A DNA stretch of 17,968 bases, taken from IMG/VR virus record IMGVR_UViG_2872185964_000004, one strand, 5' to 3'. The notes under the pieces are model-generated. The model saw nothing but the letters and a program-made list of their open reading frames with translations. It did no database searches and had not been told where the DNA came from. Shown here piece after piece: positions 16,380 to 16,738 of this stretch; position 1 is the stretch's first letter, and each line of letters opens with the position of its first letter. Position numbers and translations under genes: made by a program. This DNA is from a virus. Its lineage: Duplodnaviria > Heunggongvirae > Uroviricota > Caudoviricetes.

Positions 16380-16657
16380 AATTCCCCCTTTGTTGTTTCT
16401 TAAAGAGTCATTGGGTGGATTATTGGGTTGTGTCGGATTGTGTCAGGGTGTTTGTGGAATGGCAAACACTGGCGGCGGTCGTTTTACAGAAGCAGGGGAA
16501 TGAGAATAAAAACTCTTTTAATTCATTATGATGCAAAGGCATAAAATTTTACTTTTACGCCTTTTTTACATATTTTTAAGAGTGATTCGCCAGTGTATAA
16601 AAAAACAGCACACCTATAAAAATCAAATGGTTATTACGATGGCTGATTTTTAACCCG

Positions 16658-16717
16658 TTGTTCCATTTTGTTCCTTGTTGTTCGTCGTTGTGTCTCGTTG
16701 TTTCACGTTGTCCGCAT
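16658..16717 (+). repeat. Six tandem 10-bp-phased TTGTTC repeats (site C) immediately 3' of int and upstream of alpA
   Basis: TTGTTCcatt / TTGTTCcttg / TTGTTCgtcg / TTGTGTctcg / TTGTTTcacg / TTGTCCgcat; on the minus strand this includes ACAACGTGAAACAA, one mismatch from the site A/B 14-mer. Confidence 0.6.
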
Positions 16718-16738
16718 CCTGAAAAATCGCAAAAAAAA

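Follow-up and report, generated by a model that had tools for sequence, protein, structure and literature searches.

The stretch of DNA considered here (the window; 17,968 nucleotides, IMG/VR record IMGVR_UViG_2872185964_000004) is an Escherichia coli capsid-forming phage-inducible chromosomal island (cf-PICI) integrated between phoQ and roxA. Two minus-strand genes lie toward its right end: int (16739 to 17968), encoding a P4-type tyrosine integrase with an N-terminal arm-binding domain (PF13356 and PF00589), and alpA (16191 to 16379), encoding a 62-aa protein of the winged-helix excisionase/regulator family (Pfam PF05930, E = 3e-18), the proposed binder of the repeats described below. The spacer between them holds six contiguous 10-bp units (array C, 16656 to 16715, minus strand), which read CGTTGTTCNN on the plus strand and NNGAACAACG on the coding strand; in plus-strand order the individual units are CGTTGTTCCA, TTTTGTTCCT, TGTTGTTCGT, CGTTGTGTCT, CGTTGTTTCA, and CGTTGTCCGC. 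An earlier note on this DNA, made from the letters alone, had described six TTGTTC repeats with a 10-bp period between int and alpA, about 20 bp after the int stop and about 280 bp upstream of alpA in an AT-rich tract. Their number, period, and setting were borne out. Array C lies 23 bp from the int stop codon (16739 to 16741) and 277 bp from the alpA start (16379), so that it forms phased direct repeats 277 to 336 bp upstream of alpA, a position of the Cox-box type, and the surrounding G+C content is 38%. The motif itself had to be narrowed, as the exact TTGTTC is present in only three of the six units, whereas TTGT occupies unit positions 3 to 6 in all six, in a register of exactly 10 bp, and is the conserved core.

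In the window, TTGT recurs at exactly 10 bp in a run of up to six, whereas 300 dinucleotide-preserving shuffles of the window gave a maximum of three, reached in 2/300. On either strand, TTGT runs at this spacing were found at only four other places in the window, with spans in the scan of 16428 to 16447, 9040 to 9069 (plus a doubtful pair at 9071 to 9090), and 1581 to 1610. The GAACAA/TTGTTC motif forms four arrays besides array C, designated A, B, D, and E, with two to five units at 10 to 11 bp, which is the tandem, helical-turn arrangement expected of operators for a winged-helix recombination directionality factor (RDF). A search with the two-unit pattern GRAACAACGNGRAACAA, allowing up to three mismatches, returned 10 matches against 0.72 expected, and all 10 fell within arrays A, B, and C.

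Array A (1583 to 1612, plus strand; TGAAACAACG, TGGAACAAAT, and AGACACAAGA) is located in the phoQ-side attachment (att) arm, ∼134 bp from the crossover core, and is conserved in loci L001, L003, L010, L011, L012, L017, and L018. Array B (9042 to 9071, plus strand; GCGAACAACG, TGGAACAACC, and ACGAACAAAT) lies between the perC terminator and the capsid gene. Two more, weaker units follow at 9072 to 9091; these fall on the terminator's T tract and are regarded as doubtful. The array is present in the cf-PICIs L001, L004, L007, L012, and L018, and a diverged three-unit counterpart was found upstream of the capsid gene in L026. Array E, with four units, lies ahead of int and falls shortly past the window on its right side; it was seen in the 99%-identical L001 at 19646 to 19680, which is 56 to 90 bp upstream of the int start codon. 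The earlier note had placed the motif at three locations (the left end, the head promoter, and the int-alpA interval). All three were recovered, with three units each at the first two, but the count was incomplete, since array D (16426 to 16455) and array E had been missed.

For conservation, eight int-alpA spacers from islands at four integration sites were aligned; these were ∼69% to 84% identical to the window spacer, one of them being alignable by BLAST in its central part only. The place and register of array C were kept in 8/8 relatives, which answers the check on repeat phase in homologous islands that the earlier note had proposed. The TTGT core was 99% conserved, whereas the figure was 72% at the remaining unit positions and 77% across the spacer. 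Because the core was so much better conserved than the rest of the unit and the register was kept, the phased, base-specific core is under purifying selection.

The remainder of the int-alpA spacer was also examined. Array D (minus strand) has the same orientation as array C and lies 230 bp from it, with two clear units, GGTTGTGTCG and GATTGTGTCA, and a degenerate third, GGGTGTTTGT; it was also found in relatives L002, L013, L005, L007, and L017. The spacing between arrays C and D was 230 bp in several relatives and 220 to 233 bp overall, which is conserved only roughly, and strict helical phasing between the two was therefore dropped. A consensus scan predicted a sigma-70 alpA promoter at 16437 to 16465 (minus strand; TTGCCA, 17-bp spacer, (TG)CACAAT), ∼190 to 250 bp downstream of array C and overlapped by array D, within which its −10 and start region fall. 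An alternative promoter, CTGACA-16-AATAAT, overlaps it at 16419 to 16446. The −35 element TTGCCA (TGGCAA on the plus strand) was invariant in 8/8 aligned relatives.

Two further conserved elements were observed in the spacer. At its AT-rich center, between arrays C and D, is a hairpin of the form AAAGGCRT...AYGCCTTT followed by a T run (16535 to 16570, plus strand), the stem of which is kept by paired changes (CAT/ATG versus CGT/ACG) among the relatives. It is terminator-like on the plus strand, that is, antisense to int and alpA, and scored below the threshold of the terminator scanner; Rfam gave no match for the whole window at gathering thresholds or for 16150 to 16800 at E ≤ 1. The sequence TTAAAGAGTSATT occurs twice, at 16400 to 16412 and 16575 to 16587, 175 bp apart, and both copies were kept in 8/8 aligned relatives. 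It was not found at the att arms or at the capsid promoter, and it might be bound by another regulator or act as part of a promoter or leader.

A contig scan with AlpA returned only 3 loci and a word-indexed protein search returned 19 proteins. When at least three units at exactly 10 bp are counted as an array, the islands of 13 loci (175 kb) held 36 arrays, whereas their 267 kb of host flank held none. The arrays occur in islands with varied packaging modules, capsid-forming or not, and at several integration sites. An unbiased search for 4-mers recurring at least four times at 10 to 11 bp recovered essentially only these arrays per ∼33-kb locus. The main exception was an array of GTCAC toward the terminase end in several islands, with four to five units at exactly 10 bp close to the last gene (L004, 4442 to 4486; L010, 7152 to 7186; L011, 3521 to 3555; L012, 2680 to 2714). 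It may represent a packaging site (cos/pac or TerS binding), and none was seen in the window itself. No arrays were found in the Geobacter and alphaproteobacterial AlpA relatives (L008 and L009). CP4-57, the prophage in which AlpA was first named, has doubled 12-bp arm repeats and no 10-bp arrays, and was uninformative.

The att arms proved to be composite. The crossover core, AAATATG(T/C)CC (1460 to 1469, plus strand), forms the left island junction and overlaps the phoQ stop codon; it was mapped by setting the two L001 junctions against the empty site of K-12 (L006). Each arm carries a block consisting of a doubled 12-bp repeat and then, within 10 to 15 bp, a GAACAA array. On the phoQ side the repeat ATTAACTACACC is present twice in succession (1544 to 1567, plus strand) and directly precedes array A, which begins 15 bp after the doubled ACTACACC motif. 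The second doubled copy lies upstream of int, outside the window (19613 to 19636 in L001), with array E ∼10 bp beyond it. The exact ACTACACC motif is restricted to the att arms, with no other occurrence in the window, and the doubled repeats are putative Int arm-type sites. The arrays of the att arms thus adjoin probable Int arm-type sites, as would be expected of RDF operators.

Taken together, these observations make it probable that the arrays, array C being one of five, are operator sites for AlpA, bound head to tail. The island encodes the cognate small winged-helix protein: its AlpA is 100% identical to that of L001, and accession WP_000953274.1 is common to L001 and to the well-studied island EcCICFT073 (L017), which occupies the same integration site and has an int-alpA spacer 98% identical to that of the window, with all six units identical. 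In EcCICFT073, AlpA is required for excision and is sufficient alone to trigger it in an int-dependent manner, with int promoter activity unchanged (PMC6092414). Since excision was obtained without a change in int promoter activity, this argues that AlpA acts at att directly. In addition, AlpA expressed from pBAD activates a PalpA-lacZ reporter in DH5alpha, where no Int is present (PMC6092414), and the published primers for that reporter map to window positions 16322 to 16771, so that the activated fragment contains arrays C and D. AlpA is related to the P4 protein Vis (47% identical over 53 aa) and matches the solved AlpA-family structure 8c3t (E = 2.6e-6). Winged-helix RDFs are known to bind head to tail on direct repeats one helical turn apart, and several also act at promoters (PMC7498355, PMC11963761). 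The motif is found at both att arms, in the alpA promoter region, and ahead of the capsid operon, with its phase kept in divergent islands. The suggestion of the earlier note that a single protein links excision and regulation to capsid expression was accordingly favored by the comparative evidence, and the two alternatives it had offered, arm-type sites and a replication role, were not upheld, as discussed below.

Several points weigh against assigning the arrays to AlpA. Both the contact of AlpA with the units and the sign of its effect at each array (activation or repression) are inferred only. Pint-lacZ was unchanged by AlpA in EcCICFT073 (PMC6092414); the published Pint fragment is expected to include array E, but the two Pint primers gave no exact match in the CFT073 locus. 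Islands with a second AlpA variant (L011, L012, and L015) keep the att-arm arrays and have none upstream of alpA, and an autoregulatory use is therefore not universal. The presence of RDF sites on both att arms is unusual, lambda Xis and P4 Vis each acting on one arm only. The paired TTAAAGAGTSATT copies and the conserved hairpin of the spacer could be the real target of AlpA instead. The triplet at the equivalent position of P4 (3983 to 4012) was not above shuffles in a weight-matrix scan of that genome, in which the matrix was slightly blurred by the site A units being one base out of register. TorI, which offers a parallel in its sites (see below), is not a significant PF05930 member, and this precedent therefore comes from a more distant relative. 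Finally, the covariation by which the arrays were separated from the Int sites, set out next, rests on few lineages, given the small yield of the AlpA searches above.

The arrays might alternatively be additional arm-type sites of the integrase, as the earlier note had allowed, with the Int N-terminal domain binding GAACAA both at the att arms and at the internal arrays and thereby repressing or titrating alpA and capsid expression. Arrays A and E do flank the crossover core on both arms in one orientation, as arm sites do, six-unit array C starts right after the int stop codon, and the att-arm arrays are retained in islands with a different AlpA variant. The lambda sites P'1 to P'3, three adjacent arm sites of ∼10 bp, provide a model for such a layout. 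The arm-site role, however, already appears to be filled by the doubled 12-bp motif, which has the layout annotated in P4 and which changes as the Int N-terminal domain diverges: ACTACACC in the window is replaced by CTGACCACAC in the rcnR-site islands L012 and L015, by ACTGCACC in L026, and by GGTCCAAA in L024. The GAACAA/TGTTC motif, by contrast, persists across Int N-terminal domains 32 to 76% identical to that of the window and comes as 10-bp units in runs of three to six. L011 and L012 have a common AlpA variant and different doubled motifs. In L024, Int is ∼30% identical and AlpA still 64% identical; even here, phased repeats of the TGTT(C/T) type, such as TGTTTC, still stand beside a wholly different doubled motif. 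Because the doubled motif varies with the Int N-terminal domain while the array motif persists, the former would belong to Int and the latter to a more conserved partner. Furthermore, arrays B, C, and D are not confined to att, being 1 to 7.5 kb from the nearest arm, and the fragment with arrays C and D was activated by AlpA without Int. Binding of the arrays by Int was consequently judged unlikely.

A more doubtful proposal is that the int-alpA arrays are docking sites for a factor acting in trans (a helper Xis/Cox-type protein or another helper or host factor) that switches on alpA, in the way that P2 Cox boxes operate upstream of the P4 late promoter. P4 has three 10-bp CCACTTAAAG repeats upstream of vis, and these contain TTAAAGNCA, the P2 Cox-box consensus. 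The GTTGTGT units also resemble the lambda X1 site TGTTGTGTTTT, a weak likeness of only seven shared bases. Transcription of alpA is induced by helper phages via an unidentified factor (PMC6092414, PMC11773190), P2 Cox is cited as acting on P4 (PMC7498355), and excisionases of different elements are interchangeable in E. coli (PMC11773190). Against such a factor, the motif adjoins the island's own Int sites at the att arms in every relative, and an island-encoded partner is therefore indicated; the diversity of packaging modules and integration sites among the islands that carry arrays makes a single helper-specific factor seem unlikely; and AlpA alone activates the fragment. In a combined form of the proposal, arrays C and D would be the entry point of helper induction in Gram-negative PICIs, where a helper Xis/Cox-type protein, or a mixed filament of helper protein and AlpA, nucleates and switches on alpA, with AlpA then carrying the signal on to the capsid operon and both att arms. 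This is likewise given little weight; if true, PICIs would have an equivalent of the activation of P4 by P2 Cox at phased Cox boxes.

It was also considered that no dedicated protein is involved and that the phased AACAA/TTGTT units form intrinsically curved DNA that tunes promoters and recombination geometry. A/T-rich pentamers phased at exactly 10 bp within a spacer that is itself AT-rich have the appearance of such DNA, and curved DNA upstream of promoters raises transcription. The core TTGT, however, has an invariant G and is not an A tract, and it is 99% base-specific while the flanking A/T content drifts. The specific motif is moreover repeated at five places that differ in function, and again in distant islands, which leaves curvature as a very improbable explanation.

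With regard to replication, a separate cluster was found directly 3' of rep, in which YCTCRCTT occurs seven times (once inverted) around an AT-rich center (10388 to 10574) within a stretch of extreme AT skew. PICI origins have been reported directly 3' of rep, and in Gram-negative PICIs the origin is described as an AT-rich region flanked by two sets of iterons (PMC6092414); positions 10388 to 10574 are thus the probable replication origin of the island. The iterons vary with the type of Rep (GGTAGA in L001, TTTTGCGGGT in L012). It is therefore extremely unlikely that the arrays are replication iterons forming a second cis-acting region like ori and crr of P4, as the earlier note had suggested in its second alternative, since they are neither adjacent to rep nor altered with Rep type and are also present at the att arms and upstream of the capsid gene. 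Arrays C and D do flank a 38%-GC stretch, as two iteron sets around a melting region would; this geometry fits a promoter region as well and is also seen in the origin candidate. As a separate matter, Q-like antitermination of the kind described for Pseudomonas AlpA was rejected: that protein is larger, its N-terminal ring enters the RNA exit channel, and it uses a single GGGACG element, whereas the 62-aa AlpA here consists of the winged-helix domain only.

P4 is among the closest known systems. Vis is a homologous PF05930 protein, with the RefSeq product name "excisionase and transcriptional regulator," and P4 has the same gene order and the same type of int as the island. In P4, too, the core is flanked by doubled 12-bp repeats, which carry the annotation "attP arm sequence repeat," and CP4-57 is likewise arranged. 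Work by Cali et al. (2004) and Polo et al. (1996) reportedly placed Vis binding in the interval from int to the core, found that excision depends on Vis, and identified the late promoters PLL and Psid as targets of its regulation. This set of targets, namely att, the promoter of its own operon, and a capsid-related promoter, matches the distribution of the arrays here. In P4 itself (L014), the interval from the doubled arm repeats to the core, which is reported to hold Vis boxes, contains CGGACAACCT, CGGAAGACGC, and AGGACGAAAA at 3983 to 4012; their geometry and motif are like those of the int-proximal array, and they are regarded as a lead only. The island differs in having long, regular 10-bp arrays of three to six putative sites, including on both att arms, whereas P4 is without a statistically outstanding array, and genes for a full capsid and terminase set make up the late operon of the island. 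Vis represses PLL and Pint, whereas the AlpA of EcCICFT073 activates its own promoter and leaves Pint unaffected.

Similar arrays are bound by 186 Apl and P2 Cox, for which direct repeats 10 to 11 bp apart are found in one array at att and another at promoters, with cooperative head-to-tail binding and DNA bending (PMC7498355). Apl has five repeats at att and seven at pR-pL (PMC7498355), compared with three to six here, and RdfS is similar to Apl in that it binds promoters as well (PMC11963761). Unlike AlpA, Apl and Cox are not PF05930 proteins, and they repress face-to-face lytic and lysogenic promoters. The island differs in having five arrays, one of them ahead of structural genes, and in being a satellite without that type of immunity switch.

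A further parallel is TorI of KplE1 (CPS-53), for which the published attL account gives mapped sites of 10-bp-phased GTTCG units, CAGTTCGTCA, TGGTTCGCTT, and CAGATCGT, adjoining Int arm-type sites and overlapping the int promoter (PMC2951348); the motif resembles the TTGTTCG of the island. TorI is only a distant relative, and its sites are described in that account on attL and not at distant promoters (PMC2951348). For helper-embedded PICIs, the attachment-site account reports a tandem doubled tgTGTATTGCantgTGTATTGCa on each side of the attP center, at ∼81 and 132 bp, which its authors propose to be bound by either Int arm domains or AlpA, and that account describes no 10-bp arrays and no internal copies (PMC10111431). 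The doubled ATTAACTACACC of the window has the same layout, at ∼91 and 142 bp, and tgTGTATTGCantgTGTATTGCa corresponds to the doubled 12-bp repeat and not to the GAACAA arrays.

As regards the island as a whole, phoQ occupies positions 1 to 1461 at the left end of the window and is followed by the island, the other minus-strand genes of which encode a RepA-like helicase, SSB, PerC, HK97-type capsid, protease, portal, connector, HNH, TerS, and TerL proteins. A near-identical island is present in the phoQ-roxA interval of strain Ecol_316 (L001). L018, an O157:H7 island of ∼15.4 kb at the same site, agrees with the published description of EcCIEDL933, the cf-PICI prototype, but only in its size, strain background, and gene content. 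The window island is a mosaic: the packaging module is ∼97% identical to those of L001 and L018, the int-alpA end is 99% identical to L001, and the replication module (10125 to 12585) is 99% identical to that of L002, a non-capsid-forming O157 PICI at the same site. The accessory region carries an insertion of two IS1 copies in tandem (12583 to 14073), which share 91% identity, with a ∼10-bp overlap at the flanks relative to L001 that resembles a target-site duplication. The rep gene (10575 to 11974) is split into two open reading frames by a 1-bp deletion at ∼11666 relative to the intact 1,401-bp RepA-helicase gene of L002. The deletion and the IS1 insertions suggest that this copy of the island is possibly defective, unless the former is a sequencing error.

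If the arrays are AlpA operators, as proposed, AlpA monomers would bind head to tail on the GAACAAC(G) units, one per helical turn, and bend or wrap the DNA. At the att arms, an AlpA filament beside the doubled Int arm site would help Int to assemble the excisive complex, thereby providing the recombination directionality function. In lambda, Xis helps excisive complex assembly next to the P2 arm site, and the Xis site beside that arm site is visible in the lambda sequence. In the int-alpA spacer, six-unit array C and the promoter-proximal array D would mediate control of the alpA promoter by AlpA, the net effect of AlpA on the PalpA fragment being activation (PMC6092414). At the capsid gene, three-unit array B would tie late expression (capsid and packaging) to AlpA. 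The location of its three units just downstream of the perC terminator, together with the negative consensus promoter scan there, suggests that the capsid gene has a late promoter dependent on an activator.

Gram-negative PICIs, cf-PICIs included, have AlpA as their master switch, and no AlpA operator in PICIs was defined in the open literature searched. The arrays supply a concrete, mutable candidate for that operator, and the probable Int arm sites are now set apart from the probable AlpA sites in attP. As EcCICFT073, an experimentally tractable prototype, and the EcCIEDL933-type O157:H7 island L018 carry these sequences too, the prediction is directly testable with constructs that already exist. 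The arrangement suggests how one 62-aa protein could couple excision, self-amplification, and expression of the capsid and packaging genes.

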